Part shown: positions 7,003 to 32,650 of the stretch, one piece after another
Layout: the number at the start of each line of letters is the position of its first letter
Position numbering within the stretch: the first letter of the stretch is position 1
From: Planctomycetota bacterium
GTDB lineage: Bacteria > Planctomycetota > UBA1135 > GCA-002686595
Length of the DNA stretch: 64,000 bases
Reading direction: 5' to 3'
Assembly (NCBI GenBank): GCA_016795205.1
Contig: JAEUHZ010000045.1
Location: 1 to 64,000, forward strand
Position numbers and translations under genes: made by a program
Notes under the pieces: generated by a model
The model's database searches: none
The model's input: the letters and a program-made list of their open reading frames with translations, nothing else
Told to the model about the DNA's origin: nothing

Positions 7003-7057
7003 GCGCCGCGCGCGGCAGGGGCGGGAATCACCGGGAAGGGAGCCCGTAGCACGGCCG

Positions 7058-8159: not shown

Positions 8160-8224
8160 GAATCAGGGGCGGAGAGGATGGACCCGACCGCCGCGCCTGT
8201 CAAGGGTCCACGACCGCGGCGGGG

Positions 8225-8300
<76 letters not shown>

Positions 8301-8464
8301 CGCTGCAATGATCGCGACCGAGGATAGCAGCTCCCGCGCCGCTCGTCCGTCGGGATCCAGGCGCACTCCTCGACTGCGATGCGGCGACTGAGCCAGGGTC
8401 CCCGTCGTCGCGCGGCGGTGCGGCCGGCGCCCGGGGGGCGCGGCTCTCGGAGCGCCGGGAGGCC

Positions 8465-9744: not shown

Positions 9745-9839
9745 CGCGGCCGCTCAGGCTAGGAAACACGACGGGCCGCCGGCAAGCGCCAGCGGCCCGC
9801 GGTTCGCGCTCCAGCGTGCTCGAAGTGCTGCTCGCCGCC

Positions 9840-10694: not shown

Positions 10695-10715
10695 GGGAGT
10701 CCTTCCTTCCTCGGC

Positions 10716-11567: not shown

Positions 11568-11860
11568 GGGATGAGCGGTGCTGTGCCGCGGGGACACCGC
11601 GGCCGGCGATCACGCGGCCGGGGCTCCGGCTCGGGCGACCTGGCCGGGGAACGAGCGCCCGGCCGCGCTTCCCCTCCTCCCGCGGGCGGCGCGCGGGACG
11701 CGTCGCCCGTCTCCGGCGCGGTCCGAGCCGCGTCCGGGCGGAAAATGGGGCCAGGAGTGTAGCGGCGCGGCCCGGGCGGTCAACGCGCGCCGCCGGGCGA
11801 CCCTCTGCGGCCGGAGTAGACTTGCGGGGATGGGCCCCGCTCGCCCGCCCCACCGGACCC

Positions 11861-14055: not shown

Positions 14056-14178
14056 GGGGCGGATCCTAGTGCGTCGCTGGCGCGCGCGCAGGGAGGAGTC
14101 GCGCCAACTTGGCAGGACCCCGGGGCCGAGGATTGCCGACCTGCCACACAGGCAGCCGGGATGCACGCCGAGCCTGAC

Positions 14179-14208
14179 CCTAAGCTCTTGCTGGCAAAGG
14201 GGCTTAGG
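14179..14208 (+). promoter_or_regulatory. Nested palindrome CCTAAGCTCTTGCTGGCAAAGGGGCTTAGG in the groEL1 leader (putative operator, not CIRCE)
   Basis: Outer 7-bp inverted repeat CCTAAGC/GCTTAGG encloses an inner TTGC..GCAA repeat, ~130 nt upstream of the groEL1 ATG. The canonical CIRCE TTAGCACTC-N9-GAGTGCTAA is absent. Confidence 0.25.
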
Positions 14209-14337
14209 TGTGCAGCCCCCGACGGCATCGAACTTGCTGTCGGGCGCGCACACGGCGTTCCACCGCTCCCCGCCGCCGGCGGCGGGTCCGACGAGCGAGC
14301 GCCGCCCCCAGTCGTCCCAGGCTTCGAAGAGATTCTC

Positions 14338-16008: not shown

Positions 16009-16065
16009 TCCCCAGCCGCACCCCACCTCCAGCCCACACACCACCGACACGAGAACTCCCCCACC

Positions 16066-17670: not shown

Positions 17671-17749
17671 GACGGCCGGTGGCGACGAACAAGGGCGGCG
17701 GCGGGTGCAACGCCGCCGCCCTGCGCGCTTCCCGACCAGGGCGGACAGG

Positions 17750-18856
17750 ATGAGCGAAGAGCGCGACTACTACGAGGTCCTCGAGGTCGACCGCAAGGCC
17801 AACGAGGACGAGATCAAGAAGGCCTACCGCAAGGCCGCGATGAAGTACCACCCGGACCGCAACCCGGGGGACAAGCTCGCGGAGGAGCGCTTCAAGGACG
17901 CGGCCGAGGCCTACTCGGTGCTCTCGGACCCCGAGAAGCGCGCGCGCTACGATCGCTTCGGCCGCCAAGCCTTCGGCTCGGGCGGCGGCGCCGGACCGAC
18001 GTTCACGAACGTCGAGGACATCTTCGAGGCCTTCGGCGGCTCGATCTTCGGCGACCTGTTCGGCGGTGGCCGCCGCCGCGCCGGTCCCCAGTCCGGTCGC
18101 GACTTGCGGATCGAGCTGGCGCTGTCGCTCGAGGAGATCGACACGGGGGTCGAGAAGCGCGTGGATCTCAAGCGGCGCGAGCTGTGCGCGCCGTGCAAGG
18201 GCAGCGGCGCGCAGCCGGGCACCGAGCCCCTACCCTGCAAGCAGTGCGGCGGCCGCGGGCAGGTCTACCGCAACCAGGGCTTCTTCACGATGGGCCTGGT
18301 GTGTCCCGCTTGTCGCGGCGCGGGCAGCACGATCGCCAGCCCTTGCGGCGCCTGCAAGGGCGCGGGACGCACCGAGGCCAAGGTCGAGATCAAGATCGAC
18401 GTGCCCGCCGGGGTCGAGGACGGCATGCAACTGCGCGTGACCGGCGAGGGCGACGCCGGCGATCCGGGCGCGCCGCGCGGCAGCCTGTATTGCATCGTGC
18501 GCGAGAAGGAGCACCGCATGTTCCAGCGCGACGGCGCCGACGTCATGTGCAAGCTGCCGTTCTCCTTCACGCAGCTCGCGCTGGGCGACGAGGTCGAGGT
18601 CCCGACCTTGCGCGGGCGCGCTCGGATGACGATCCCGCCCGGGACTGCCAGCGGCAAGGTGTTCCGCTTGCGGGGACAGGGAGTGCCGCAGATCGACGGG
18701 CGCGGGCGCGGCGACCAGCTCGTGCACGTCCAGGTCGAGGTCCCGACCAAGCTCGACGCGCGCCAGAAGGAGCTCCTGCGGGAGTTCGCCGAGCTGGAGA
18801 GCAAGCACTCGGGGGACAAGTCCTTCTTCGAGAAGATCGCCAGCTACTTCTCCTGA
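17750..18856 (+). CDS. dnaJ: Chaperone DnaJ
   Basis: J-domain with HPD (KYHPDRNPGD), G/F-rich linker, four CxxCxGxG zinc-finger repeats (CAPCKGSG, CKQCGGRG, CPACRGAG, CGACKGAG) and a C-terminal domain. Confidence 0.95.
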   Translation: MSEERDYYEVLEVDRKANEDEIKKAYRKAAMKYHPDRNPGDKLAEERFKDAAEAYSVLSDPEKRARYDRFGRQAFGSGGGAGPTFTNVEDIFEAFGGSIFGDLFGGGRRRAGPQSGRDLRIELALSLEEIDTGVEKRVDLKRRELCAPCKGSGAQPGTEPLPCKQCGGRGQVYRNQGFFTMGLVCPACRGAGSTIASPCGACKGAGRTEAKVEIKIDVPAGVEDGMQLRVTGEGDAGDPGAPRGSLYCIVREKEHRMFQRDGADVMCKLPFSFTQLALGDEVEVPTLRGRARMTIPPGTASGKVFRLRGQGVPQIDGRGRGDQLVHVQVEVPTKLDARQKELLREFAELESKHSGDKSFFEKIASYFS

Positions 18857-18860
18857 AGCC

Positions 18861-19388
18861 ATGACCGAGCACCACGACATCAGCACCGTCCCCGACGAGC
18901 GCCCCATCGAGGAGCGCCTCGCGTCGGCCCTCGCGGAGCGGGACGAGGTCCACCGCAACTGGCAGCGCGCGCTGGCGGACTACCAGAACTTGCGCCGGCG
19001 CCTGGCGAGCGACGTCGAGGACGCCGTGAGACGCGGCAAGCGGGCGCTCGTGACGGATCTGCTCCTGGTGCTCGACTACCTCGACATGGCACTGGCCGCG
19101 CCGGCCTCGAACCCCGAGACGGCCGCGCTGCGGGCCGGGGTCGAGCTGACGCGCGGCCAGTTGTGGTCCGCGTTGGAGAAAGAGGGCGTGTCCGTCGTGC
19201 GCGAGAGCGGGGCGTTCGATGCCGCCTGGCATGAATGCGCCGAGCGCGTCGCGACGGCCGAGGCGGCCGCGGGCACGATCCTGCGTGTCCTGCGGCGGGG
19301 TTACGCCTGGCAGGGCACCGTCCTGCGACCGGCGCAGGTGCGGGTGGCAGCCGCGCCCGCCGGCGAGTCCATCGGCCAGGAGTCCTGA
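18861..19388 (+). CDS. grpE: Nucleotide exchange factor GrpE
   Basis: 175 aa with GrpE coiled coil (NWQRALADYQNLRRR) and C-terminal beta domain. Located 4 nt after dnaJ. Confidence 0.85.
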   Translation: MTEHHDISTVPDERPIEERLASALAERDEVHRNWQRALADYQNLRRRLASDVEDAVRRGKRALVTDLLLVLDYLDMALAAPASNPETAALRAGVELTRGQLWSALEKEGVSVVRESGAFDAAWHECAERVATAEAAAGTILRVLRRGYAWQGTVLRPAQVRVAAAPAGESIGQES

Positions 19389-19770: not shown

Positions 19771-20637
19771 TCAGGCCGGGAACAGCTCGGCCACCAGCTC
19801 GGCGATCGCAGTGCCCTCGTTGTGCGGCAGCAGCCGGTGCGCGGCCGCGATCGCCTCGGGCATGCCCGTCGCCATCGCGACCGACAGGCCCGCGGCGGCG
19901 AACATGGGCAGGTCGTTCGTCGCGTCCCCCACTGCCACGGTCTCCGCAGCGGCGATGCCGTAGGCCTCGCCGAGCGCGCGCACGCCTTCGCCCTTGCCGC
20001 GACAGGGCGGGTGCACGTCGAGCACGGACAGCGGGTTCGCGCGGTGGGTCGGCAGCGCGGAGAGCGGGAAATGCGTCAGGTACACAGGGTGCCGCAGCCA
20101 GGCCTGGGCCTCGTCGTGCAGCACGGCCGAGGTGGCGTGGCCGCGGCTGAAGAGGGTCACGCGCACGACGAACTCGACCCTGGAGAGCTCGTCGCGGGAA
20201 CGGACCGCGAGGCCCACGAGCCCCTGGAGCGACGAGCGCTCCAGCTCGTCGCGCGGCGGGCTCGCGTACTTCGCGTCGTTCGTCATGACGACCGTCAGGA
20301 GGTCTTCGCGCTCCGCGAACTCGAGAGCGCGCGCGACCGTGCGCGCCGAGAGCACGCGCTCCTCGAGCATGCGGCGTTGCACCGGACACCACAGACCGGC
20401 TCCGTTGAACGTCACGGCCGGGGTCTGCAAGCCGATCTCGTCGACGATCGGGATCGTGGAGGCCGTGGAGCGCCCCGTGGCGATCATCACGCGGCCCCCG
20501 CGCGCCTCCAGGTCGCGCAGCGCGCGCGCGTTCTCGGGATGCACGCGGCCCGCCTCGTCGAGCAGGGTGCCGTCGAGGTCGAGCAGGATGGCGCGGTAGC
20601 GCGCGGGCCTCGCGGAGGAGAGCGGAGCGTGGATCAC
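19771..20637 (-). CDS. HAD-superfamily hydrolase, Cof-like (HAD-IIB). Putative GTG start.
   Basis: AILLDLDGTLLD (motif I), MIATGRS (motif II), GKGEGV and AVGDATNDLPMF (motif IV). Confidence 0.8.
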   Translation of the reverse strand: MIHAPLSSARPARYRAILLDLDGTLLDEAGRVHPENARALRDLEARGGRVMIATGRSTASTIPIVDEIGLQTPAVTFNGAGLWCPVQRRMLEERVLSARTVARALEFAEREDLLTVVMTNDAKYASPPRDELERSSLQGLVGLAVRSRDELSRVEFVVRVTLFSRGHATSAVLHDEAQAWLRHPVYLTHFPLSALPTHRANPLSVLDVHPPCRGKGEGVRALGEAYGIAAAETVAVGDATNDLPMFAAAGLSVAMATGMPEAIAAAHRLLPHNEGTAIAELVAELFPA

Positions 20638-20647: not shown

Positions 20648-23620
20648 TCATGGCACCTGGAGCACGGCGCGAGCCAGCTTCGCGACCTCGACCTCGACCT
20701 CGACCTCGCCCAGAGGCGTGGAGAGCCCCTGGCGGTCCCGCCGCGAGAGACGCAGCGCGTGCCGGCCCGGCACGATCGAGGCGACGGTCTCGGCGGGGTC
20801 CCACTTCGAGAGCCACACGCGGCGCAGGACGCGCTCGCCCTCCTGCTCACGCGCCACGATCTCGACCTGGTAGCCGTGGTCCTCGAGCAGCGCGCCTTGC
20901 AGCGTGAGCTCGACACGCCCCGCGCGGCGCAGCACGAAGTCTGCGCCGCCGCGTACCTCGCCCGGGGCCAGCGTGATCGGCTCCAGGCTGCGGCCCTCGA
21001 CGTCTTCCCCACGGGCCGAGACGGAGAGAGGCTGGCTGTCCACCAGGCCGCGCAGCAGGTAGTTCCCGCGGGCGTCCGTGCGCGCCGCGCGAGCTCCGCC
21101 CCCCGCGCGCCGCTCGAGCCTGGGCTGGCCGCGGTCGTCGACGCCCAGGACGAGCGGCTGGGGGGGCTCCATTTCGATCGCGGCACCCAGGCGCTCGACC
21201 TGGATGCGCACGCCGGCGATCGGCAGGCCCTCGGGGTCGGTCACGCGTCCGCGGATCTCGTTCGCGTCGAGCGTGAAGTCCGCGAGCTGCTCGCCCGCGC
21301 CCAGCACGAGGCGCTGCTCGAGCGGCATGCGGCGATCGGGGTGGTGCACGAGCGCGAGGTAGGTCCCGGTGCGACGGTTCTCGATCCGGTACTCGCCGCG
21401 GTGGTTGGTCCGCGCAGCGAACGGGTCCTGGCCGTCGCCCGCCCAAGTCCAGCCGGACTCGCGGCCCTCGACCCAGGGCACGAGCTTCACGACCGCGCCC
21501 TCCAGCACCCGCCCGCCCTCGCGCACGACGCCCGCGAGGGTGCCGCGTGGCGGGGCGACGAAGTCGATGCGCAGGTCGGAGGACTCGGCCAGCGAGACTT
21601 CGCGCCAGGGCTCCTCGCGGACGGCGCGGTCCGCGTCCGCCTCGAACCAGGCGGACTCGCCGTCCTCGAGCTCGAGGCGGAAGGCGTGGACGCCGCCCTC
21701 GAGCGCTTCGAAACGCGCTTCGCCGCGCCCGTCGGAGAGCACGCGAGCAAAGCGCTCCTGGCCGCGGTCGACCGGCAGCCGGGCCGGACGGTGACCGACC
21801 GGCGCGCCAGCCACGGCGCGACCCGCGCCGTCGTGCACGACGACGGTGACGCGCGCGCCGCGGCGCAGGACCAGGCGCGCGGCGTGGTCCGCGTCGCGCG
21901 GCTGCCGCGCTTCGACGGCCACGGCCGGTGCGAAGCCGGGAGCCGTGGCCGTGAGGCGCGCGAGCCGACCGGGGTAGCCGGCCAGCACGGCGCGGCCGTC
22001 CTCGTCCGTGCGCGCGGTGCGCACCTGCACCTCGCCCGAGAGATCCTGGCGGTCGGGGGTTCGGGCCCACTGCTCGAGCCGCTCGGGGCCCTCCGCCGTG
22101 ACCAGCACGCGCGCGCCCTCGACGGCCAGGTCCTGCTCGTCGACCACCGTGATCACCAGCCGGCGCTCGGCGACGACCCGGATCTCGCCCAGGTCGATCT
22201 CTGTCCCGTCGACCAACACCAGGTCCTTGCGCTCGAAGTCCACGCGCCCCGGAGCCGAGATGCGCAACCAGGCCGGGCGCCCCGGCGGCGGCGCGCGCGG
22301 TTCCGCGCAGCGCAGCTCGCCTCCCGGCCAGGCGCGTTGGACCTCGTTGCGCTCGTCGCGCAGCACCCGGAAGCGCCCGACGCCCCACCACACGACGAAC
22401 TCCTCGAGGGGCTCGCCGGTCGCGTCGTCGACGACCCGCGCCTTGAGGCCCGCGTCGGCGTCGACGACGAACTCCATCGAGGACGAGGGCGCACTGACAT
22501 TGCGCGCGCCGGCCACGTGCCAGACCTCCCCGCGCTTCACCGCAAGCGTCAGCCGGTAGGCCTCTCCGGCGAGGAGCCCCTCGACGCGGAAGGTCCCGTC
22601 GGGTCCCACGACCGCCGTGCGTGGCCGCGCCTCGATCACGGCGTCCCCGTCCTCAGGCTGTGGCTCCTCGGTCGAGGCCTGGGTCGCATCCGCTGCCGGC
22701 GCAAGGCGGCGCGCCACGACACGCATCGCGCCGGCCAGGACGCCGGGCTTCAGGCGCACGCGACCCGAGATCGCGGCCCCGGGCTCGAGCCGGACGACGA
22801 AGCCCGCGAGCTCCTCGCCCGCTCGCTGCGTGCGGCCGGCGACGCGCGCCAGCGCCGAGCCCTCGCGCACGAACAGCAGCTCGAAGGGCCCCGGCGCGAG
22901 CTCGTCGACGCGGAATCGTCCGGCCGCGTCCGTCTCGGCCACCGGCACGCCGTGGCCGGGGATCGAGAGCGCGCCGCCCGACGCCAGCGCGTCGGCCGCC
23001 ACGAGCACGCGCACGCCCGGGGCCGGCGCGCCGCCGGCCTGCAGCACGACGCCCGCGACGGCCGCCCCGGGATCGAGCGCGATGTCGCCCAAGTCCAAGT
23101 CGTCCTGGCGCAGCTCGCCCAGCGCTTCACGGTACGTCGGCGCGCGGCCCGCGGCGCGTGCCACGAGCCGCACGCGCCCGGGGAGCAGCGCGTCGAACGC
23201 GAAGCGCCCCTCGGCGTCCGTCTCGGCGCGCGCGACGTCGAGCCAGCGGCCGGCGAAGGCCTCCCGCTCCAGGTCGAGCGGCACGCGTGCCCATTGCGAG
23301 CTCGTCGTGGCCCACACGCGCGCCCCGCCCAGCGGGCGGCCCGCCGCGTCGACGACGCGCCCGGTGACGCGCGGGCGGGGCTTCGGTCGGCGCCGCGGGA
23401 CGAGGGCGGGCTCGGGCACAGGCTCGATCGCCGTGCGTGTCGGGCGCGCGGCGCCTGCGCCGGGCTCCGGATCGAGCGCCGCGCCGGTCGACTCCGGACC
23501 GACGCCCACGCGGCCCGCAGCCAGGCTCGCGCGCGAGCCGGCACCAGGGTCGAGCAGGGCCAGTGCAGCGATGAGGCCGGCGGCCAGCAGCGCCAGGAGG
23601 ACGAGAGGGCGTGAGCGCAC
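20648..23620 (-). CDS. Large secreted protein built of ~10 tandem carboxypeptidase-regulatory-like (CarboxypepD_reg/Ig-like beta-sandwich) domains. Putative GTG start.
   Basis: 990 aa. Recurring ~85-aa units of type GRVVDxxGxPxxGArVxv...TDAxGRFxxxxLxPGxxxL (for example VTGRVVDAAGRPLGGARVWA...TDAEGRFAFDALLPGRVRLVA). Signal-like N-terminus (V)RSRPLVLLALLAAGLIAALALL chosen over the Arg-rich upstream ATG. Confidence 0.7.
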   Translation of the reverse strand: MRSRPLVLLALLAAGLIAALALLDPGAGSRASLAAGRVGVGPESTGAALDPEPGAGAARPTRTAIEPVPEPALVPRRRPKPRPRVTGRVVDAAGRPLGGARVWATTSSQWARVPLDLEREAFAGRWLDVARAETDAEGRFAFDALLPGRVRLVARAAGRAPTYREALGELRQDDLDLGDIALDPGAAVAGVVLQAGGAPAPGVRVLVAADALASGGALSIPGHGVPVAETDAAGRFRVDELAPGPFELLFVREGSALARVAGRTQRAGEELAGFVVRLEPGAAISGRVRLKPGVLAGAMRVVARRLAPAADATQASTEEPQPEDGDAVIEARPRTAVVGPDGTFRVEGLLAGEAYRLTLAVKRGEVWHVAGARNVSAPSSSMEFVVDADAGLKARVVDDATGEPLEEFVVWWGVGRFRVLRDERNEVQRAWPGGELRCAEPRAPPPGRPAWLRISAPGRVDFERKDLVLVDGTEIDLGEIRVVAERRLVITVVDEQDLAVEGARVLVTAEGPERLEQWARTPDRQDLSGEVQVRTARTDEDGRAVLAGYPGRLARLTATAPGFAPAVAVEARQPRDADHAARLVLRRGARVTVVVHDGAGRAVAGAPVGHRPARLPVDRGQERFARVLSDGRGEARFEALEGGVHAFRLELEDGESAWFEADADRAVREEPWREVSLAESSDLRIDFVAPPRGTLAGVVREGGRVLEGAVVKLVPWVEGRESGWTWAGDGQDPFAARTNHRGEYRIENRRTGTYLALVHHPDRRMPLEQRLVLGAGEQLADFTLDANEIRGRVTDPEGLPIAGVRIQVERLGAAIEMEPPQPLVLGVDDRGQPRLERRAGGGARAARTDARGNYLLRGLVDSQPLSVSARGEDVEGRSLEPITLAPGEVRGGADFVLRRAGRVELTLQGALLEDHGYQVEIVAREQEGERVLRRVWLSKWDPAETVASIVPGRHALRLSRRDRQGLSTPLGEVEVEVEVAKLARAVLQVP

Positions 23621-23684
23621 GGTCGGGAGGTCCGGCCTCGAAGCTACACCTCCGGTCCGTGTCCGGGTATCCCGCCCCGTGCGC

Positions 23685-26600
23685 TCACGCGCCGCGCACG
23701 TCCAGCGTGATCTGCCCCGGCGTCCCGACCGAGAGCTCGACGGTCTGCTCCACCGGCGTGGCCGTGCTGTCGCCCGGACCCGTGCCGAGCGGACGCGCCG
23801 TGACACGCCAGCGGCCGGGCTTCAGTCCCTGGAAGCGGACGCGGCCGTCGCCCCGCGTGATCTCGAACTTCGTGTCGCGATCGGTCTCGTCGACGAGCTC
23901 CGCGCGCACCTCGCACGGCGTGGCCGGCGAGCCGTCCGGTCGGCGGCACAGGACCTCCAGGCTGGCGCCCTGCCGCGCCACGAGGTCGACGCCCGCGCGC
24001 GTCCCGTCGACCGGGACGCGCACGACCTCGCTCTCCACGCGCTGCACGCCCTGTCCGGAGGCCGTGACGACCAGGTCCGTATCGGGGCTCACGCCGCGCA
24101 GGCGGTAGCGACCCTCGGCGTCCGTGGTCACCGTGCCACCGCCGCCGCCGCCGAACGAGACCGGCCCGTCGCCCGCGTCGACCGCGAACACGAACTCGCG
24201 CCGCGACACTCCGCCGCCGCCACGGCGCTCCGCGCGCACGCGCAAGCCCGCGACGCCTTGCCCCTGCTCGTCGACCACGCGTCCTTCGAGGATCGAGAGC
24301 GGGAGCTCGACGTTCTCGCGCGTCTCCCCCGTCCGCACGCGCAGCTCGAGCTCGTGCGCCATCGCGCGACCGGGGTGCGCGACGGACAGCACGTACTCGC
24401 CGACCGCCACGTTCTCCAGCGCGTACTCGCCCTGCCCGTCCGTGTCGGCCCGCGGGCCCTCGCCGAGGAAGTCGAGGTCGTCGCCGCCCTTCGCGCGCAG
24501 CCGGACCGTGGCTCCGGCCAGCGGACGCCCGCCCTCGCGCACGCGGCCGGTGACGCGCGCACGCTCGGGCGCGGTGAGCACGGTCTCGTGCTGTCCACCC
24601 TCCTGGACCACGACCTCGGTCCAGGGTTCCTCGGGCGGCGCTTCACTGCTCCCGCTGCGCGCCAGCGCCACGCGCATCGCGCCGCCGCCGGCGCCGAAGA
24701 TGCGCGGCGCGTCGCTCGCGGCGAGCCGCACCGCGTGTGTGCCCGGGCTCAGCCGGGACAGCGTCACCCGCCCCTCGGCGTCGGTGACGGGCGCGCCCCC
24801 CGGTCCCAGGAAGGCGGGCTCGTCCCCGGCACCAGGCGCCTGATGCTCGATGGCCTGACCGACGACCGGCGCGCCGCGCGGATCGACGACCCGCACCACG
24901 AGCGTGCCGCCGGCCGACAGCGCCAGCGCGCGTTCGACGTCCGCGCCGCGCGGCAGGTCGATCGGCTCCGTCACGAGCTCGGCGTGCTCCGCGTGGGTGA
25001 CACGGATCCGGGCCCGCGAGCCCGGCAGGCTCGAGACGCGCGCGAGGCCCTGCGCGTCCGTGCGCGCGCGTTGGGCCGCGCCCCCACCGAACTCGAGCCC
25101 GTCGTCGTCGTCGCCGCCGAGTCCAGCGCGGAACGTGAAGCTCCGTGCGCCGCCTGGGCCGCCCGCCTCGTCGCGCACTGCCTCGAGCGTCACGCGCGCG
25201 CCGACGACGGGCGCGCCGGAGGCCGCCGACGTGACGCGCACGGTGACGACCGAGGTGCGCTCCAGGCGCACGACGCCCAGATCGTTGTCCTGCCCCTCGA
25301 CGACGCGCACGTCCGTGCGCTCCCAAGGTGCGTAGCCCGCCGCCTCGACCCGCACCGTGACCTGCGGGGCCCCGCTGCTCGCGGCGCCGCGCCCGCCGAA
25401 GCCCATCCCGGACACGCGCAGGCCGCCGTAGCGCACCCGGCCCTCGGGGAAGTTGCGCACCGCCCGGTTGCGCTCGTCGGTGAGCGGCGCGGCGAAGCGC
25501 GCCCCCGCCGCCACGCTCATGTCCGTGATCGGCGCGCCGCTCGTGGCGTCGACGACCTGGAACACGAGCGCGGTCTCGGCCCGGTACGCGAGCTCGACGC
25601 CGCGCTCCCCAGCGACCGCCTCGACGGTGTTCGAGCGCGTCGGGCTGCGCAGCATCGCCCCGAAGCCCTGCGTCGCGAGCCGCGCCGAGAGGCGCACCCG
25701 GGCCTCCTTGCGCAGTCCCCTCACGACGAAGCTGCCGTCGGCCGCGACCGGCGCCAGGCGCTGGCCGAGCCCGGGCCCGAAGTCGCCTCCGAAGCCAGGC
25801 CCGCCGGGGATCGCCGCGACGCGCAGCAGCGTGGCCTCGGCCGGCGGCGCACCCGAGAGACGCCCGGAGATCTCGAAGCCCTCCTCGAGCTGGATCACGA
25901 GCCCGCGCACGATCTCGCCGGGGCGGGTCGTCTCGCCGCTCTCGTCCTTGTCGGGCGCCGCCTCCGAGGTGACGCGCAGGCTCCACGGGCCGGCGGCCAG
26001 CACGTCGACGCGGAACGCGCCCTGGGCGTCGGTGCGCGCCGCGACGGCGCCGCCGCGGCCGGCGAACAACGCCATGGGGCCCGACGCGGCGCGGCGGCGG
26101 CGCAGCTCGGCGCCCTCCACGGGCCGGCCGAGGTGGTCCACGACGCGCCCCTCGACGACGACGCCGCGCTGGACCACGAGATCGCCCAACTCCGGCTTCG
26201 ACTCGGACAGCGGGCGCTCGACGTCGAGCGGCGCGAAGCCTGCGGCGCGCACCGCGAGCCGGACGCGCGCCTCGGCACGCGGCTCCAGCGCGAAGCGACC
26301 CTCGGCATCCGTGCGCGTCTCGACGCGGCGCATCCAGGGCATCTCGAGCGGGTCGACCTCGTCGAGCGCGAGCTCGTCGAACCCGCTCGTGCCCGCGGCC
26401 AGGACCAGCGCCCCGGGCACCGGCCGACCGGACTCGTCGAGCACGCGGCCCGTGACCCGGCGCGCGCGTCCCGGCGCGTCCGCGGTGGTCGCGGCCGCCT
26501 GAGCCCCCTCGCTCGCGCTGCCGCTCTGGACAGCGCGCGCAGCGCCGACCTGCGCGACGTCGGCGATCTCCGCCGGCGTGCGCAGAGGCTCGGCCGTGAG

Positions 26601-26723
26601 CGGCGCACCGCCGCTCTCCGCGACCAGAGTCGGCGCGCTGCCGGATCCGGTGAAGAACAGCAAGGCGCCGAGGAGGGCGAGGACGAGCGCGGCGAGCGCG
26701 AAGAGGACGGGGATCGGGCGCAT
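23685..26723 (-). CDS. Large secreted protein built of tandem carboxypeptidase-regulatory-like domains (paralogue of the preceding gene)
   Basis: 1012 aa. Signal peptide MRPIPVLFALAALVLALLGALLFF. Repeats such as VTGRVLDESGRPVPGALVLAAG...TDAEGRFALEPRAEARVRLAV and ITGRVREGGRPLAGATVRLRA...TDGQGEYALENVAVGEYVLSV. Confidence 0.7.
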   Translation of the reverse strand: MRPIPVLFALAALVLALLGALLFFTGSGSAPTLVAESGGAPLTAEPLRTPAEIADVAQVGAARAVQSGSASEGAQAAATTADAPGRARRVTGRVLDESGRPVPGALVLAAGTSGFDELALDEVDPLEMPWMRRVETRTDAEGRFALEPRAEARVRLAVRAAGFAPLDVERPLSESKPELGDLVVQRGVVVEGRVVDHLGRPVEGAELRRRRAASGPMALFAGRGGAVAARTDAQGAFRVDVLAAGPWSLRVTSEAAPDKDESGETTRPGEIVRGLVIQLEEGFEISGRLSGAPPAEATLLRVAAIPGGPGFGGDFGPGLGQRLAPVAADGSFVVRGLRKEARVRLSARLATQGFGAMLRSPTRSNTVEAVAGERGVELAYRAETALVFQVVDATSGAPITDMSVAAGARFAAPLTDERNRAVRNFPEGRVRYGGLRVSGMGFGGRGAASSGAPQVTVRVEAAGYAPWERTDVRVVEGQDNDLGVVRLERTSVVTVRVTSAASGAPVVGARVTLEAVRDEAGGPGGARSFTFRAGLGGDDDDGLEFGGGAAQRARTDAQGLARVSSLPGSRARIRVTHAEHAELVTEPIDLPRGADVERALALSAGGTLVVRVVDPRGAPVVGQAIEHQAPGAGDEPAFLGPGGAPVTDAEGRVTLSRLSPGTHAVRLAASDAPRIFGAGGGAMRVALARSGSSEAPPEEPWTEVVVQEGGQHETVLTAPERARVTGRVREGGRPLAGATVRLRAKGGDDLDFLGEGPRADTDGQGEYALENVAVGEYVLSVAHPGRAMAHELELRVRTGETRENVELPLSILEGRVVDEQGQGVAGLRVRAERRGGGGVSRREFVFAVDAGDGPVSFGGGGGGTVTTDAEGRYRLRGVSPDTDLVVTASGQGVQRVESEVVRVPVDGTRAGVDLVARQGASLEVLCRRPDGSPATPCEVRAELVDETDRDTKFEITRGDGRVRFQGLKPGRWRVTARPLGTGPGDSTATPVEQTVELSVGTPGQITLDVRGA

Positions 26724-26955
26724 GGGGCGGGCCGCGCACGGGCGCGGAAATGGGGGCTGTCCCCTGGCCGCGCCTCGCAGGGAGAGGGCGGCGCTGCCCG
26801 GGACGGAGAGCGTACGGGATCGAACCGGCGACAGTTTGTAAGGGCTCGCGTCCCGGGGGAACGGGGCCGGTCGCGTCCCTTGCAGGTGCGGTGGAAGAGC
26901 GGTGAGATGCAGGGGTCGCGACCGGCTCCCGCGCGACCTCCAAGGACGCTGAATC

Positions 26956-28554
26956 ATGCTGCTCGTCCCCTCGATCCACCGCGCCCTGGCTCCCGCCGCC
27001 GTGCTGCTCCTGGGTGGGCTGGCCCTGGCCCAGGTGCCCAAGGTCGGACGGCACTACGAACGCCCGGACCTGGGCTTCCGCGTCAAGACGCCCGCCGACT
27101 GGGACCTGGTGCCGCCCCAGCCCGGCGACCCGCACATGCTGGTCAAGTTCGATCCGCCGAACACGAAGTACGTGGAGACCGGGCCGGGCTACGGGGACCG
27201 GGTGTTCCTCTCGTGCTGGCTGGTCCAGTTCGACCGGCGCCCGAAGGACGAATCCGAGAAGTCGCGCTTCACGCGCAAGCCGCTCAAGGACGTGGTGGAG
27301 TGGGTCCAGAAGGCGGGCGAGGTCGAGGAAGGCTCCAAGCACAAGCTCGACGGGAAGAAGGAGCTCAACGTCGGCGGCAAGGTGCCGGCCATCGAGTACG
27401 TCCTCACCACGCCCGGCGAGGAGAAGACCTCGAAGCGGGTCTACGCCATGCAGTACGCGCTGGCGCCCGACCTCGACGTGGCGATCGTGTTCACGGCGCC
27501 CGGCGCCAAGTCGAAGTGGCCCAAGTACGAGAACGTCTTCGAGCAGATGGCGAAGTCGCTCTTGCGCCTGGAGCTCTCGGCCGCCGGCGCAGGACCGGGC
27601 GCGGACGCGCCGCTGCGCGAGCGCGAGCGCGAGAAGCTCCAGAAGAGCCTCGCGGCGCTCGGCGGGGGCTGGAAGCTGCACGAGACGCCGAACTACTTCG
27701 TCGTGACGCCGCACACCGATCGCGCCTTCGTGACCGAGCTCTGCGACCGGCTCGAGGCGATCCGCGCCGTGTACGAGGTCGACTACCCCTACGAGAAGGC
27801 CAAGGAGCTGCGCGAGGCCGGGGCGGCCGCGCAAACCGGGCTCTCGGAGGCCGAGAAGAAGAAGAAAGAGCTCGAGAAGAAGGCCATGGACGAGCTGTTC
27901 GGCGGCGCGGACAGCCGCGAGCTGTCGCGTTGCTCCGTGGTCCGCGTCTTCACCGACCGCGAGAACTACCACAGCTACGGCGGCCCCCCGGGCTCGGCCG
28001 GCTATTGGAGCGCGTTCCACCGCGAGCTCGTCCTCTACGACGACCAGGCCGGCGGCGGACGCAACGACACGTGGATCGTCCTGAACCACGAGGCGTTCCA
28101 CCAGTACATCTTCTACCTGTACGGGAACATCAGCCCCCACAGCTGGTACAACGAGGGCACCGGCGACTTCTACAGCGGCCTCGAATACAAGAACAAGCGC
28201 TTCACCCTGAAGCCCAACCTGTGGCGGCGGGACACGATCAAGGCCGCAGTCCAGCAGGGCAAGCACGTTCCGCTCGCCGACTTCGTGCGCTGGTCGCAGG
28301 CCGAGTACTACGGCAACAACAAGCTGGGTGTCGACGGCGGCCAGAACTATGCCCAGGGCTGGTCGTTCATCTACTTCCTGCGCACGGGCAAGAAGAACTT
28401 CCCGAAGGGCTGGGACGCGTCCTGGGATGGCATCCTGGACACCTATTTCCGCGTCCTGGCGATGTCGAGCGACCTCGATCAGGCCGTGAGCGAGGCCTTC
28501 CAGGGGATCGACATGGAGAAGCTCCAGAAGGCCTGGGAAGCCTCGACGAAGTGA
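26956..28554 (+). CDS. DUF1570-type secreted protein with an M1-like gluzincin signature (putative metallopeptidase)
   Basis: 532 aa. Signal peptide MLLVPSIHRALAPAAVLLLGGLALAQ. VLNHEAFHQY...SWYNEGTGDFY gives HExxH-x18-E, as in M1 HELAHQW...LWLNEGFA. KE-rich coiled segment in the middle. Confidence 0.65.
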   Translation: MLLVPSIHRALAPAAVLLLGGLALAQVPKVGRHYERPDLGFRVKTPADWDLVPPQPGDPHMLVKFDPPNTKYVETGPGYGDRVFLSCWLVQFDRRPKDESEKSRFTRKPLKDVVEWVQKAGEVEEGSKHKLDGKKELNVGGKVPAIEYVLTTPGEEKTSKRVYAMQYALAPDLDVAIVFTAPGAKSKWPKYENVFEQMAKSLLRLELSAAGAGPGADAPLREREREKLQKSLAALGGGWKLHETPNYFVVTPHTDRAFVTELCDRLEAIRAVYEVDYPYEKAKELREAGAAAQTGLSEAEKKKKELEKKAMDELFGGADSRELSRCSVVRVFTDRENYHSYGGPPGSAGYWSAFHRELVLYDDQAGGGRNDTWIVLNHEAFHQYIFYLYGNISPHSWYNEGTGDFYSGLEYKNKRFTLKPNLWRRDTIKAAVQQGKHVPLADFVRWSQAEYYGNNKLGVDGGQNYAQGWSFIYFLRTGKKNFPKGWDASWDGILDTYFRVLAMSSDLDQAVSEAFQGIDMEKLQKAWEASTK

Positions 28555-30287
28555 GGCGCTCCGCCCCGGCCGTCGCGCACAGCCCGCGCTGGCCGCGCCT
28601 TGCTCGCGCCGCGCTGGCGTTGCTGCTCCTGGCCCCGGTCGCGGCGGCGGATCGCGTCCTGACCGTCGACGGCCGCGTGCTGACGCCCAAGAAAGCCCGC
28701 GCCGAGGGCGCTGGCTACCGCCTCGAGTTCGAGCACGGGACGATCCTGCTTCCCGACAAGTCGCTGATCGCCTCGGCCGAGATCGAGGGCGACATGTCGG
28801 ACTACGTCCCCGCCAACGACGACGAGCGCGAGAAGCTGGCCCAGGGGTTCGTGAAGTACCGCGGGCGCTGGATGTCGCGCGCCGGCTACCAGGAGGAGCT
28901 GCGCAAGCAGTCCGAGGAGAGCCGCAGGCGCACCGAAGAGCTGGCCCAGCACTCGGACTGGGCCAGCGCCTGGGAGAAGGAGACCCAGCACTTCCGCCTG
29001 CGCTCGAACACGAGCCCCGAGATCCTGGCGTACTACGCCGAGCTGCTCGAGACGTTCTACGCGCTCATGGACGAGAAGATCGGCATCAATCCGACGCCCT
29101 CGCTGCGGCGCACGAAGATGCAGGTCAACATCTTCAAGAGCCACGAGGAGTTCCTGTCCGTGACCAGCCCGGGCAGCGGCGCGGTCCTGGGCTTCTTCTC
29201 CCCGATGGCGAAGTCGTTGAACTTCTTCCACGACTACGCCGAGCCGGCACGCTCCGAATGGGTCGCGCTGCACGAGTGCACGCACCTCCTGACCTTCCTC
29301 ATCGACCCCCAGTACCTCCCGCAGATCTGGCTCAACGAGGCGGTCGCCGACTACTTCGGCAGCTCGAAGGTCTATCGGGACAAGAAGGGCAAGCTGCGCA
29401 TCGAGCCGGGCGAGGTCCAGCTCGACCGCACGTTGACGGTCCAGCAGGCCATCAAGAACCTGGGCTCCGCGACCGGCGAGGTGCGGGCCCAGCCCAAGGG
29501 CGCGCGCGACGATCCGGCCTCGCGGCCCTTCACGAAGCTCGAAGCCCTGTTCCTCCTGACGCGCGACCAGTTCGACGGCTTCCAGTACGCGCACGCTTGG
29601 TCGTTCGTCTACTTCCTCCAGAACGGCGCCGGCGGCAAGTACAGGAAGCCCTTCGACCGCTTCTTCAAGGGCTTGTACACGCTGGAGAAGGGCCTCCCCT
29701 ACTCGGTCGAGAACGTCGGCGGCGCGGTGCCCGAGATGGGCGGCGTCGGGAAGCTGGTCGCGGCCAAGGACATCCGCGCCTACTTGCTCAAGCAGCTCAA
29801 GGTCAAGGACGTCGAGACCCTGGAGCGCGAGTGGCGCGAGTTCATCGCCGCCATCCCGGTGCAGGGCCCCGAGGCCGTGCTCAAGCGCGGCATGCTCGCC
29901 GTGCGCCAGATGGAGTACGAGGACGCGCTCCCCGACCTCGACGCCGCGATCGACGGCGGCACGCAGGACCCACGCGCCTGGGCCTTCCGCGCCCGTGCGC
30001 ACGCGGGCACGGGTGCCACGGACAAGGCGCTCGCTGACTACCGGACCGCGATCGAGAAGGATCCGCTCGCGGCCGCGGTGCGCTACGAGTACTCGCGCCT
30101 GCTCGTGGGCCGCCCGGTCGTGCGCCCGCCGCGCTCGGCGGGTGGGAGCGGCGCCTCGCTCGAGATCGGAGAGGCTCCCGACGCTCCCAAGCTGGCCCAT
30201 GCCGAGGCCCGCGCCCAGGCCGGCTTGGCCTCCGAGCTCGATCCCGACAACGACCGCTTCCGCTCCTGGCTCCAACGCTTCGAATGA
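28551..30287 (+). CDS. DUF1570-type secreted protein, paralogue 2, with gluzincin signature and C-terminal TPR-like helical region
   Basis: 578 aa. GTG start overlaps the upstream stop (GTGA). ALHECTHLL...IWLNEAVADYF gives HExxH-x18-E. C-terminal helical repeats (AVRQMEYEDALPDLDAAI..., ADYRTAIEKDPLAAAVRYEYSRLL). Confidence 0.6.
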   Translation: MRRSAPAVAHSPRWPRLARAALALLLLAPVAAADRVLTVDGRVLTPKKARAEGAGYRLEFEHGTILLPDKSLIASAEIEGDMSDYVPANDDEREKLAQGFVKYRGRWMSRAGYQEELRKQSEESRRRTEELAQHSDWASAWEKETQHFRLRSNTSPEILAYYAELLETFYALMDEKIGINPTPSLRRTKMQVNIFKSHEEFLSVTSPGSGAVLGFFSPMAKSLNFFHDYAEPARSEWVALHECTHLLTFLIDPQYLPQIWLNEAVADYFGSSKVYRDKKGKLRIEPGEVQLDRTLTVQQAIKNLGSATGEVRAQPKGARDDPASRPFTKLEALFLLTRDQFDGFQYAHAWSFVYFLQNGAGGKYRKPFDRFFKGLYTLEKGLPYSVENVGGAVPEMGGVGKLVAAKDIRAYLLKQLKVKDVETLEREWREFIAAIPVQGPEAVLKRGMLAVRQMEYEDALPDLDAAIDGGTQDPRAWAFRARAHAGTGATDKALADYRTAIEKDPLAAAVRYEYSRLLVGRPVVRPPRSAGGSGASLEIGEAPDAPKLAHAEARAQAGLASELDPDNDRFRSWLQRFE

Positions 30288-30955
30288 CCCACCCGCGCCG
30301 CTTCCGCGCCCTGATCCTGGGCGTCCTGCTTCCCCTCGTGGCTGCCGGCTGCAGCGGCCTGCGGACGCTGTCGGATCCCACGCTGGTCGTCGAGACGAAC
30401 GGCGGCCGCGAGTTGGGCGTCGCGACGGATTGGGGGGTCGTGTTCCTGGGCCGCACCGCGCGCTCGGGCCCGGCGCGGGTCACGGCCTGGTTCGGTGACG
30501 GTCCCAGCCTGGAGAGGACGGTCATCGAGCCGATCGGCCCCGAGCTGTGCACCGTCGAGGCGCCCATCCGCCTGCCCGACGTGCCGATCGACTTTCGCGA
30601 CCCGCGGCCGGGCGAGACGCTGCTCGTGTTCGGGCGCGACGCGCGCGGCCCTTGGTCGGAGAGCGTGACCGTCGTCGAGGACCCGCGCGTCCTGGGGCTC
30701 TTGACCACGCTCCCGGCGCGGCTCGCGCAGGGGGCCGACCAGGTCGGCGCGGGCGTCTACTCGATCCCGGTCGGGGGCGACACCCGCACGAAGCGGCTCG
30801 TGGGCTTGGCGGCGGGCACGATCCGCCTGCGCACCACTGCCGGCGAGCGCGAGTACCTGGCGGTGGTCGGTCCTCAAGAGCTGTGGCGGCTCGTCACCGC
30901 CCGCCGCGACGCAGGCGCTCGCCGGCCCTGGATCTACCGCGACGACGTGCTCTGA
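30284..30955 (+). CDS. Hypothetical lipoprotein
   Basis: 223 aa. Lipobox LPLVAAGCSG. ATG overlaps the upstream stop (ATGA). No known domain. Confidence 0.55.
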   Translation: MTHPRRFRALILGVLLPLVAAGCSGLRTLSDPTLVVETNGGRELGVATDWGVVFLGRTARSGPARVTAWFGDGPSLERTVIEPIGPELCTVEAPIRLPDVPIDFRDPRPGETLLVFGRDARGPWSESVTVVEDPRVLGLLTTLPARLAQGADQVGAGVYSIPVGGDTRTKRLVGLAAGTIRLRTTAGEREYLAVVGPQELWRLVTARRDAGARRPWIYRDDVL

Positions 30956-31674
30956 GGGCGCGGGCCGCTGGGCGGCGTCCACGCCGGCCAGGGCCCCTGC
31001 GGGCTGCGCTGCGCGTCGCCCCCGTCGCGCGTCCCGAGCACGCCGCGGGTCAGCGCGACGTAGACCGGCTTCCCGACGCGCCTCCAGGCTCGCGCCAGGG
31101 GCGAGCGACGGATCCCGGCCCCCGCGCCGACGAGCTCGACCCCGCCAGGGCCGCGGCCGTGGCGCGTGTAGCGTCGCCGGTGCTTCTCGACGTGGCGCAG
31201 GTCCTCGCGCGCGCGGACCTCGAAGGCCCGCCCGCCACGCGGGTGGCGGCTCGCGAGCTGGAAGTCGATGAGCCACGGGTAGCCGTCCGCGCCGACGAGC
31301 ACGTTCGATTCCTTGTGCAGGTCGTTGTGGCACACGCCGCGCGCGTGCACGGCCTGCACCAACGTGTCGAGGTGGTCGAAGAAGTCCGCGGGCAGCTCGC
31401 CGGCGCGCGAGAGCGGCACGCCGCTCACCCAGTCGCGCAGGAGCACGTCGAGCGCCTCGTCACCAGCCGCGCGGGAGAGCAGGCGTGGCACGCCTGCCAA
31501 CCCCGCGAGTGCGCGCAGGGCCCGGCGCTCGCGCGCCAGCAGGCGCCGCGCGAGCCAGCCGCTCCCGGGCAGGCGGTTCCCGGACGCCACGCGCCGGGCG
31601 CAGGCGGACCCATCGATCTCGACCCGCTCGACGCGGCCGAGGGCGTCCTGCTTGTGGATCTCGGGCGCTTGCAC
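30934..31674 (-). CDS. Atypical protein-kinase-like protein (RIO/Kdo-kinase-like fold). Putative GTG start.
   Basis: Catalytic-loop-like VCHNDLHKESNVLV and DFG-like WLIDFQLA. Only ~246 aa. Start uncertain. Confidence 0.45.
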   Translation of the reverse strand: MQAPEIHKQDALGRVERVEIDGSACARRVASGNRLPGSGWLARRLLARERRALRALAGLAGVPRLLSRAAGDEALDVLLRDWVSGVPLSRAGELPADFFDHLDTLVQAVHARGVCHNDLHKESNVLVGADGYPWLIDFQLASRHPRGGRAFEVRAREDLRHVEKHRRRYTRHGRGPGGVELVGAGAGIRRSPLARAWRRVGKPVYVALTRGVLGTRDGGDAQRSPQGPWPAWTPPSGPRPQSTSSR

Positions 31675-31717
31675 GGCGCGCTGATTGTGCGCACGCTCGC
31701 GTGCAGGTCCAAGCCGC

Positions 31718-32650
31718 GTGCCCCCCCACCCGAGCGAACCCACGATCGTGGCCCGCGGCCTGGCACGTGCCTTCGGCGCGCGGACCGCCTTGCACCCCAC
31801 CGACCTGGCGCTCGGGCCGGGCGGGGTCATCGGGCTGCTCGGTCCCAACGGCAGCGGCAAGAGCACGCTGCTCAGGATGCTCGTGGGGCTGGTGCGGCCC
31901 GACGCCGGCAGCGCGGTCGTGGCGGGCGTGCCGCTCGCGGGCGACGGCACCGCGATCCGCCGGCGGGCGACGTACGCGCCCGGCGAGTTGGCGCTCTACG
32001 GCGAGCTCAGCGGGCGCGACCACCTGGGATGGCTGCTGCGCGGTCGCGAGCGCGCCGCGCGCTCGCGTGCGATCGCGCTGGCGGAGACCCTCGGCTTGCC
32101 GCTGTCCGCCCGCGTGCGCAGCTACAGCCACGGGATGAAGCGCCAGCTCCTGTTCTCGGCCGCGCTCGCGCCCGCCGTCCCCGTGCGCATCCTGGACGAG
32201 CCCACCGAAGGGCTGGACCCGACCAAGCGCGGGGAGGTCCTCGACCTGGTCGCCGACGACGCGCGGGCCGGCCGCACGATCCTGCTCTCCTCGCACCACC
32301 TGGGCGAGGTCGACCGCGCCTGCGACCGGCTGGTGTTCCTGGCGGCGGGCCGCAAGATCGCGGACGAGACGGCGGCCAGCGTGGCGCGGCGCGCGCGACG
32401 CCTCGTGCGCGTCGCGTACGCGACCGAGGCCGACCTGCTGCTCGCCGAGCGCGAGGTCGGGCGCCTTGCGGGCGCCAGCCCGAGACGCGAGGCCGGTCGG
32501 CTCTCCGTCCTGCTCGAGGACGACGATCCCCGCGCCTTCCTCGCTGCGCTCTCCGACCTGCGCGTGCTGCCCGCACCCCAGAGCGTCGAGTACGGCCAGA
32601 TCTCGCTCCAGGAGCTGTACCGCGAGCTCTACGGCGTGGAGGGCTGCTGA
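31718..32650 (+). CDS. ABC transporter ATP-binding protein (GTG start, ATG at 31685 also possible)
   Basis: Walker A GPNGSGKST, Q-loop, signature SHGMKRQLLFSAAL, Walker B ILDEPTEGLD, H-loop SSHHL. Confidence 0.85.
   Translation: MPPHPSEPTIVARGLARAFGARTALHPTDLALGPGGVIGLLGPNGSGKSTLLRMLVGLVRPDAGSAVVAGVPLAGDGTAIRRRATYAPGELALYGELSGRDHLGWLLRGRERAARSRAIALAETLGLPLSARVRSYSHGMKRQLLFSAALAPAVPVRILDEPTEGLDPTKRGEVLDLVADDARAGRTILLSSHHLGEVDRACDRLVFLAAGRKIADETAASVARRARRLVRVAYATEADLLLAEREVGRLAGASPRREAGRLSVLLEDDDPRAFLAALSDLRVLPAPQSVEYGQISLQELYRELYGVEGC

Follow-up and report, generated by a model that had tools for sequence, protein, structure and literature searches.

Two probable transcription units, a predicted gluzincin protease operon and a tandem-repeat protein unit, adjoin in a Planctomycetota genome

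In a Planctomycetota MAG, two putative zinc metallopeptidases (A and B) and a lipoprotein (C) are encoded divergently from two giant repeat proteins (G1 and G2) and a HAD phosphatase-like protein. Comparison of this locus with its relatives indicates that it probably consists of two transcription units that are neighbors by descent. In contrast, an initial annotation of the 64,000-nucleotide stretch analyzed (the window) had joined the giants and A-B-C into one candidate proteolytic system; this claim is not supported, since flanking genes are equally conserved, some relatives have the HAD gene divergent from A-C with no giants, and distant A-like genes occur without these partners.

Results

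Locus organization

The window has a G+C content of ~74%, and spurious ORFs are plentiful; the 2556-aa ORF at 22617-30287 is one of them, and gene B forms its 3' end. On the plus strand are A (26956-28554, 532 aa), B (28551-30287, 578 aa) and C (30284-30955, 223 aa), which overlap by 4 nt at GTGA (A/B, 28551-28554) and at ATGA (B stop/C start, 30284-30287). G2 (23685-26723, 1012 aa) and G1 (20648-23620, ~990 aa) are on the minus strand, and a 232-bp intergenic region (26724-26955) separates G2 from A. We looked up four of the genes in the NCBI annotation of the MAG and found that the A, B, C and G2 sequences match exactly. The genes described initially are real, and their 4-nt overlaps, the HExxH…NE motifs, the TPR tail, the lipobox and the paralogous repeat-only giants were all found where they had been placed. 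One boundary moved: G1 is a genuine gene, but its earlier start at 23806 is that of the maximal ORF, and the likely start is the GTG at 23620, which leaves a gap of 64 nt behind the G2 stop at 23685. The HAD gene (19771-20622), also on the minus strand, follows G1 after ~25 nt. Both giants as well as A, B and C have N-terminal hydrophobic signals, which the HAD protein lacks.

Domains and catalytic motif of A and B

A and B are paralogous by BLASTP (27% over 192 aa, E 2e-11) and by hhalign (probability 98.5%, E 3.6e-15, 260 columns). A starts with a signal peptide (aa 1-25), continues with a PsbP/Mog1-like domain (~aa 30-200) and ends in a gluzincin metallopeptidase domain (~aa 220-532). In B, the signal peptide is followed by a small beta domain that is highly conserved (aa 35-108), and the gluzincin domain (~aa 140-420) precedes a TPR region (aa 421-518). 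The TPR-like tail that had been proposed for one of the two DUF1570-like copies is thus confirmed, by both a TPR profile match and the fold at the C-terminus of B. An apparent 1021-aa A-B(-C) fusion (P0283) proved to be a frameshifted read-through and was rejected as a Rosetta-stone fusion.

The catalytic motif of A is HEAFH…NEGTGD (28087-28167, plus strand), which translates to H378-E379-x-x-H382…N399-E400-x3-D404, and that of B is HECTH…NEAVAD (29271-29351, plus strand), which translates to H241-E242-x-x-H245…N262-E263-x3-D267. Both proteins therefore carry HExxH and then NE 18 residues on, as first reported, with the Glu as the 18th residue past the second His (17 residues intervene). Across 26 orthologues of A and 25 of B, at identities down to 46-54%, we found no variation in HExxH, N-E or the Asp four residues later. 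Hence, the motif is not a chance occurrence.

Both AlphaFold models (pLDDT 87 for A and 83 for B) contain a gluzincin catalytic domain with a two-subdomain thermolysin-like fold. The A model places HExxH in helix 369-389 and NE…D in the consecutive helix 396-407, and the B model places them in helices 232-251 and 259-270, which are likewise consecutive. E400 of A and E263 of B, each on the next helix and the candidate third zinc ligand, are the sole invariant Glu residues downstream of HExxH.

Family assignment of A and B

Because the motif is invariant, HExxH and NE lie on consecutive helices and the orthologues match DUF1570, the sequences and models argue that both proteins very probably belong to an uncharacterized family of MA-clan (gluzincin) zinc metallopeptidases near DUF1570. 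In fold, the modeled catalytic domain most resembles the peptidase domain of M9 bacterial collagenases. The initial annotation had called both proteins DUF1570, which fits most of the orthologues better than the window proteins themselves. Of 25 B orthologues, 21 match DUF1570 (PF07607) at E<=0.01 (best 1.6e-6), over a region that spans HExxH…NE, and A orthologues match it weakly (20/26 at E<=1). However, window B falls below the Pfam gathering threshold of 22 bits (9.8 bits, E 1.3), and window A had no match in Pfam or NCBIfam even at E<=10. The A-type family comprises 2657 representative clusters at E<=1e-3 (~2,650 at 50% identity), mostly without a Pfam match; A belongs to a separate, larger family than DUF1570.

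Corresponding searches for M9 gave one match of Pfam Peptidase_M9 among the 25 B orthologues (E 6.9e-5) and none to window A or B. When profiles of A, of B and of the joint catalytic core were run against PDB sequences, only TPR matches came back, with no peptidase relative or collagenase. Our literature searches on the DUF1570/PF07607 family yielded a single mention in passing, with no functional work.

The other readings of A and B concern which peptidase family they resemble and whether they are enzymes at all. From the similarity of HExxH…(W/Y)xNE, both had been likened to M1-type aminopeptidases or close M1 relatives. The MA-clan part of that claim is supported by the invariant motif and the modeled gluzincin domain, with HExxH and NE on consecutive helices of a thermolysin-like fold; the M1 details do not stand. 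M1 enzymes have HEXXH-X18-E, which puts the Glu at +19, and in A and B it is at +18, one residue short. There is no G.MEN or MEN string of the GxMEN exopeptidase motif in either protein, and the Peptidase_M1 profile does not match A or B at E<=10. An M1 assignment is contradicted at the family level by these results, and we consider it extremely improbable. A reading in which A, B or both are catalytically dead binding proteins, and the operon is non-proteolytic (e.g. in envelope assembly or chaperone-like), would suit the PsbP and TPR domains, which are protein-binding modules, and the chaperone genes that adjoin the locus in most genomes. Against it, H, E, H, N-E and D are invariant in both paralogues across deep divergence, which is unlike the pattern of pseudoenzymes; hence, we judge loss of catalysis very unlikely, and we favor active gluzincins.

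Lipoprotein C

The claim that the third gene of the operon encodes a lipoprotein was borne out. C has the lipobox VAAGC at 30338-30352 (aa 19-23, VAAG-C), and its Cys, after a hydrophobic stretch, is kept in nearly all of 71 orthologues (54 by the strict pattern). The motif CxGTRxLxDP is also conserved among C orthologues. Searches of window C against Pfam and NCBIfam found nothing even at E<=10, those of 28 C orthologues against Pfam at E<=10 found three single-member chance matches only, and C had no match to PDB sequences. The orthologues have no invariant His or Ser. To our eye, DQxGAGVY…LVGLxxG in the C sequence recalls GDSGGP…vGIvSwG of chymotrypsin-fold proteases.

Giants G1 and G2

The giants are paralogues of each other: G1 and G2 share 32% identity over 880 aa (E 4e-60). 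Pfam CarboxypepD_reg (PF13620, cutoff 32.3 bits) matches four stretches of G1 (E 2.5e-47, 159.6 bits) and five stretches of G2 (E 2.5e-60, 201.2 bits), and NCBI lists the identical G2 protein as MBL8862246.1, 'carboxypeptidase regulatory-like domain-containing protein'. With a repeat HMM built from the giants themselves, we found 10 units that tile aa 84-997 of G2 and 8-9 units over aa 80-891 of G1 (eight clear, with a diverged C-terminus). Hence, there is no space left for a catalytic domain, and the description of the giants as paralogous tandem-repeat proteins without one holds.

Each giant has a single N-terminal hydrophobic segment and no further one. In G1, this membrane anchor or signal sequence is followed by a low-complexity linker and then by tandem CarboxypepD_reg-type beta-sandwich units; G2 begins with an anchor and carries 10 beta-sandwich units in tandem. 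Searching G2 against the PDB gave nothing meaningful. Faint MG3 and MG4 matches were sub-threshold and reflect generic beta-sandwich similarity, so an alpha-2-macroglobulin reading was rejected.

HAD gene and intergenic region

The HAD gene was found by tblastn with the HAD protein of a related locus (L001), with 77% identity over 282 aa. Its product, which resembles a Cof-type HAD-IIB phosphatase, matches NCBIfam HAD-SF-IIB at 79.9 bits (cutoff 41.8) and the Cof subfamily at 129.6, just under the cutoff of 137; it has neither a signal peptide nor an N-terminal hydrophobic segment. The gene is present in 46/52 loci.

In alignments, the divergent intergenic region (26724-26955) has three blocks, GGGAGAGGG, CAGTTTGTAAGG and TCCCTTGC, which are conserved only among relatives with >=70% protein identity and were not found in more distant loci. 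A promoter scan of the region gave no sigma-70-like match, and Rfam and terminator scans gave nothing. A sigma-54 or ECF-type promoter in these blocks was rejected, as they lack the -24 GG, show atypical spacing and are limited to close relatives.

Gene content in relatives

A and C are the conserved core of the locus. Downstream of A in 72 loci, we found B plus C in 51, C alone in 15 and B alone in none; no other partner accompanies A as constantly as C, which is found in 66 of the 72. B is missing from the basal relatives and, on the A tree, from four or more further groups of loci.

In 58 of the 63 loci with enough flank, a giant is encoded upstream of A in divergent orientation, and the number of giants varies, with two in 25 loci and one in 22. 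Conservation of the neighboring housekeeping genes matches that of the giants: among 38 full-flank loci, 33 keep DnaJ and GrpE, 30 a kinase-like gene and 31 an ABC ATPase. Since these flanking genes are retained in the same loci, the entire 20-kb region is syntenic. Chaperone genes (groEL-dnaJ-grpE) adjoin the locus in most genomes.

Three loci (L111, L114 and L115), which are basal in the A tree, have DnaJ-GrpE-HAD divergent from A-C and lack both the giants and B. In these giant-less relatives the HAD gene keeps its position, divergent from A and downstream of dnaJ-grpE; hence, the giants sit between HAD and A. Alongside translocated copies of A and ~35 distant A-like genes, both the giants and C are absent.

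One system or two units

The giants probably adjoin the proteases through inherited gene order, and joint function has so far found no support. The alternative is a single proteolytic system, at the cell surface or in the periplasm, that would combine the giants with A-B-C under a shared divergent promoter and use the rods as substrates, scaffolds or adhesins. Adjacency of giant and A in 58/63 loci speaks for this system, as do the export or anchor signals on all five products and the intergenic blocks that close relatives share. Moreover, in every in-locus lineage examined on the A tree, the giants, once present, are kept at the locus, and B is lost at least four times, a retention that is compatible with a functional tie to the proteases. 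However, the adjacency, which had been proposed as the synteny check, does not discriminate, since dnaJ, grpE and the ABC-transporter genes are kept in the same loci as well. The basal loci keep HAD and A-C without giants, giant copy number is inconstant, no giant is near the translocated or distant copies of A, and the intergenic blocks disappear below 70% protein identity. The flanking housekeeping-gene control and these natural variants thus remove most of the support for a protease-plus-giants module, and we regard one system as unlikely.

A related reading has the rods recruited beside an ancestral protease-lipoprotein pair in one uncultured Planctomycetota lineage, where they would now be part of a dedicated envelope machine: the rods would be processed, trimmed or turned over by two collagenase-fold gluzincins, which PsbP and TPR modules would target and C would tether. 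If so, the rods might, for example, set or remodel the spacing or the surface layer of the periplasm, which is unusually large in planctomycetes. We think this quite improbable and prefer two units side by side. More generally, conserved adjacency in a slowly rearranging clade can mimic a 'system'.

Discussion

In the model we prefer, unit 1 (A-B-C, plus strand) would be an envelope protease operon. A and B would be Sec-exported gluzincin-type zinc endopeptidases, with zinc binding, endopeptidase activity and location all predicted. Both His of HExxH and the Glu of the following NExxxD helix would be the zinc ligands, the Glu of HExxH would be the general base, and the Asp of NExxxD would brace one of the His ligands, an arrangement known from thermolysin and neprilysin. 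The two enzymes would differ in their recognition modules, with an N-terminal PsbP/Mog1-like domain in A and the small conserved beta domain plus C-terminal TPR array in B, and the translationally coupled lipoprotein C may tether or regulate them at the membrane. Unit 2 (G2-G1-HAD, minus strand) would produce two rods, each with an N-terminal anchor and 8-10 beta-sandwich repeats, and then a cytoplasmic Cof-type phosphatase.

These assignments give a predicted structural and catalytic role to the large unannotated A-type family, with its ~2,650 clusters at 50% identity, and extend to the DUF1570 paralogues, which are abundant in Planctomycetota. A collagenase-fold gluzincin joined to a PsbP-like or TPR module is a candidate new peptidase family.

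The likeness of A and B to M9 collagenases (ColG, ColH, ColT and the Grimontia hollisae collagenase) is limited to the fold of the peptidase domain, and the PDB and Peptidase_M9 profile searches gave no significant sequence similarity beyond the one B orthologue. The M9 enzymes have a helical activator domain where A has its N-terminal PsbP-like domain and B its small beta domain, and activator, PKD and collagen-binding domains are not seen in the secondary structure of the A and B models. The third-ligand Glu of ColG is at ~+28, whereas the corresponding Glu of A and B is at +18. With the gluzincins thermolysin (M4) and neprilysin (M13), similarity is confined to the motif, and the N-terminal subdomain and accessory domains differ. 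Relative to DUF1570 (PF07607), which is planctomycete-rich and uncharacterized, A adds the PsbP-like domain. This PsbP/Mog1/DUF1795 fold also occurs in cyanobacterial PsbP, the T6SS Eag chaperones, Tsi3, LpqN and DcrB, and in A it is fused to a metallopeptidase; its candidate roles there are substrate clamp, prodomain or partner binding.

Gene organization of the locus

Two giants of ~1000 aa that consist of CarboxypepD_reg repeats, G1 (20648-23620, − strand) and G2 (23685-26723, −), are divergent from an operon that encodes two putative metallopeptidases, A (26956-28554, +; 532 aa) and its paralogue B (28551-30287, +; 578 aa), and a 223-aa lipoprotein, C (30284-30955, +). A Cof-type HAD-IIB hydrolase gene (HAD; 19771-20622, −), absent from the initial annotation, lies ~25 nt downstream of G1. 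By exact look-up, we found the NCBI annotation of this Planctomycetota MAG is identical in sequence for A, B, C, and G2 (MBL8862246-249); the first three are named 'hypothetical protein' and G2 'carboxypeptidase regulatory-like domain-containing protein'. The 4-nt GTGA and ATGA start/stop overlaps of the operon were confirmed in the sequence, and A and B are translationally coupled to the conserved lipoprotein C.

G1 had been extended to 23806; the gene itself stands, but that end is the one of the maximal ORF, and translation from the GTG at 23620 yields a protein with a normal N-terminus. This start puts 64 nt between the G2 stop and G1, and the giants are non-overlapping in orthologous loci as well. 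Since the G+C content of the window is ~74%, long spurious ORFs occur throughout. Two were rejected as artefacts of this composition: a 2556-aa ORF (22617-30287, +) that runs antisense through the giants and of which only the last 578 codons are a gene (B), and a 1407-aa ORF (12853-17076, −) antisense through groEL.

The divergent intergenic region (26724-26955) contains sharply conserved blocks, GGGAGAGGG, the AT-rich CAGTTTGTAAGG, and TCCCTTGC, within an otherwise variable spacer (compared in loci L001, L007, L008, L010, and L033). The blocks are limited to relatives with at least 70% protein identity, and they could be promoter/operator elements or merely a sign of recent common ancestry.

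The exported paralogues A and B share an invariant gluzincin motif

We found A and B have in common a domain of ~260 residues (BLASTP E 2e-11; hhalign probability 98.5%). Across the aligned orthologues (26 of A and 25 of B), we found no variation in HExxH, in N-E, or in the Asp four positions further on, and the joint signature is G…W…L-HExxH-x11-P-x2-W-x-NE-x3-D … YAxxWSxxYFL. The canonical M1 arrangement, HEXXH-X18-E, places the Glu at +19. The HExxH…NE motif previously described as M1-like is present, but its Glu is the 18th residue past the second His, one residue off the M1 spacing, and the GxMEN motif was not found in A or B. The NExxxD of both proteins resembles the glutamate helix in the style of thermolysin and neprilysin.

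Both proteins had been labelled DUF1570. Our HMM search gave TPR matches for B plus DUF1570 at 9.8 bits, below the cutoff of 22, and zero Pfam or NCBIfam matches for A. Among orthologues, DUF1570 was matched by 21/25 B proteins at E ≤ 0.01 and by 20/26 A proteins only at E ≤ 1; hence, B sits at the margin of DUF1570, and A belongs to a remoter, essentially unannotated sister family. Peptidase_M9 was touched by one of the 25 B orthologues (E 6.9e-5), and PsbP or PsbP_2 by a few of the 26 A orthologues. Searched exhaustively with HMMER, the A profile matched 2657 representative clusters at E ≤ 1e-3; at E ≤ 1e-10 and E ≤ 1e-30, 1248 and 441 remained. A second tier of ~500-aa proteins has the full A architecture at 30-35% identity and mostly lacks Pfam matches. 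The searchable literature gave no functional information on DUF1570.

The most conserved part of B is a small N-terminal beta domain (aa 35-87; 28653-28811), with many invariant residues in DRVxTxDGRVLTPKKAR…EIEGDMSDYVP. This domain has no family assignment and looks like a specific binding module.

A and B are predicted to have a collagenase-like fold

Profile searches of the PDB returned no sequence-related solved structure for A, B, or their joint catalytic core, and the AlphaFold2 models built on the orthologue alignments are confident (A, pLDDT 87.4 and pTM 0.86; B, pLDDT 83.1 and pTM 0.77). In both models, a long helix carries HExxH, and NE follows on the next one past a short loop. The paired values of the fold comparison were highest for the M9 collagenases 7wss (17.2 and 17.9), ColT (4ar8; 16.6 and 17.1), and ColG (2y3u; 16.1 and 16.2), followed by M30 lugdulysin (12.9 and 14.2) and M1 aminopeptidases (10-11.3 and 13.2-13.5); for thermolysin (8.9), M61 (8.9), and M60 (8.5), only the first value of the pair was recorded. 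Independently, Foldseek also returned the ColH, ColT, and ColG peptidase domains. Hence, the models support the peptidase reading of the initial annotation but not its M1 likeness, and A and B are best described as predicted collagenase-fold gluzincins near DUF1570.

Both paralogues are exported and combine the invariant gluzincin motif and, in their models, a collagenase-like gluzincin fold with accessory modules that differ between them. In the inferred metal site, zinc would be held by H, H, and E, with the Glu of HExxH as the probable general base. Since the exopeptidase motif is missing and the domain is M9/M30-like, A and B would act as endopeptidases, presumably in the periplasm or at the cell surface. 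PsbP and TPR may serve as recognition modules, and C as an anchor or regulator. The locus adds candidates from a lineage so far unstudied to a known kind of enzyme, the secreted gluzincin metallopeptidases, and re-labelling A and B as collagenase-fold gluzincins near DUF1570 helps both annotation and peptidase classification.

C has a lipobox, and its Cys and the subsequent CxGTRxLxDP motif are kept across orthologues; no sequence relative was found in Pfam or the PDB. At aa ~150-185, a conserved DQxGAGVY…(15 aa)…LVGLxxG is spaced much like GDSGGP…vGIvSwG in chymotrypsin-fold proteases. The orthologue alignment has no invariant Ser or His, and no profile match in Pfam or the PDB backs a chymotrypsin-like reading; C may be a pseudoprotease-like beta-barrel.

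The giants are repeat proteins linked to A-B-C by inherited synteny

G1 and G2, which are 32% identical over 880 aa, are paralogues with strong matches to CarboxypepD_reg. A self-derived repeat HMM gave 10 units tiling aa 84-997 of G2, and 8 clear units plus a diverged C-terminal remainder in G1, which confirms that the giants are all-repeat proteins with no catalytic domain. Each has one long N-terminal hydrophobic segment and none elsewhere, so we take them to be rods, either anchored at the N-terminus or secreted. The giants evolve fast: at the far end of the clade, their median identity is 31-37% vs 61% for DnaJ and 43-50% for A, B, and C.

The block HAD-G-G<>A-B-C (<>, divergent) is also found in orthologous loci at 76% and 49% identity. 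Across 80 GTDB species loci, all from uncultured Planctomycetota MAGs and counted by tblastn, 58 of the 63 with sufficient flank have a giant upstream of A in divergent orientation. Two giants are present in 25 loci, one in 22, and none in 5, and HAD was found in 46/52. In the 72 loci counted downstream of A, B never occurs without C (0 loci): 51 have both genes, 15 only C, and 6 neither.

These counts bear out conserved synteny of giant and peptidase genes, but the control was decisive: the giant-A adjacency is no better conserved than that of A to chaperone genes. In 38 full-flank loci, DnaJ and GrpE were retained in 33, the kinase-like gene in 30, and the ABC ATPase in 31. Since 5 of the 38 are translocated solo A copies, dnaJ and grpE accompany essentially every in-locus case. 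Hence, the ~20-kb region groEL-dnaJ-grpE-x-HAD-G-G<>A-B-C-…-kinase-ABC is inherited as a unit.

The chaperone cluster that served as control (16066-19388, +) is directly left of HAD; grpE was confirmed in the window, and the presence of groEL and dnaJ is presumed from where their ORFs lie, how long these are, and which genes Pfam annotates in the orthologous locus L001. To the right of C, the kinase-like (APH/RIO-like) and ABC-transporter ATPase genes (30934-31950, −, and 31685-32650, +) are also kept in most related loci, and trkH/trkA is inserted between C and these genes in some relatives.

Natural variants and history of the locus

A second set of 80 metagenomic loci was fetched with a distant A-like profile. 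In three of these (L111, L114, and L115), DnaJ-GrpE-HAD(−) is directly divergent from A-C, and both the giants and B are absent. For ~35 more distant A-like genes, no G, B, C, HAD, or DnaJ neighbour was detectable; the six such loci examined have phosphodiesterase, inositol monophosphatase, MBOAT, or MFS genes nearby. The five solo A copies of the GTDB set also have unrelated neighbours.

We built a rough neighbour-joining tree from 60 A proteins. The loci without giants branch basally in it, every later in-locus lineage has giants, at least 4 separate clusters lack B, and solo A copies are nested inside the clade. The simplest history suggested by this tree is that HAD<>A-C came first and the giant or giants were gained later. 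Universal retention of the giants after their gain, in every in-locus lineage, is compatible with their functional coupling to A-B-C; however, a gain that happened once and was then inherited vertically counts as only one evolutionary event and cannot carry that claim. For the proposal that giants and A-B-C form one secreted protease module, we found no support other than inherited synteny.

In one MAG (L056), A and a B-like DUF1570-TPR gene are divergent rather than tandem (7804-9768, −, and 9791-11656, +) with neither giant nor C nearby; hence, A and B can stay paired through a rearrangement even where G and C are absent. In L038, a translocated A copy is divergent from a different secreted repeat protein of 1188 aa (6522-10088, −) with beta-propeller/NHL/SGL and cadherin-like Ig domains, and this single case hints that A-type genes may tend to adjoin large surface proteins. 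A metagenomic protein (P0283, 1021 aa) looks like the end of A fused to B and C, but its Arg/Ser-rich stretches mark it as frameshifted read-through on a contig fragment, and the fusion was rejected.

Other features in the window

A TPP riboswitch (63405-63510, −) narrowly passed the gathering score of 54.3 with 54.9 bits and overlaps, by ~60 nt, the 5' end of a same-strand, high-GC3 ORF (61795-63465, −) that presumably serves thiamine biosynthesis or transport. Rfam also identified three tRNA genes on the − strand (4-78, 8087-8159, and 8228-8300).
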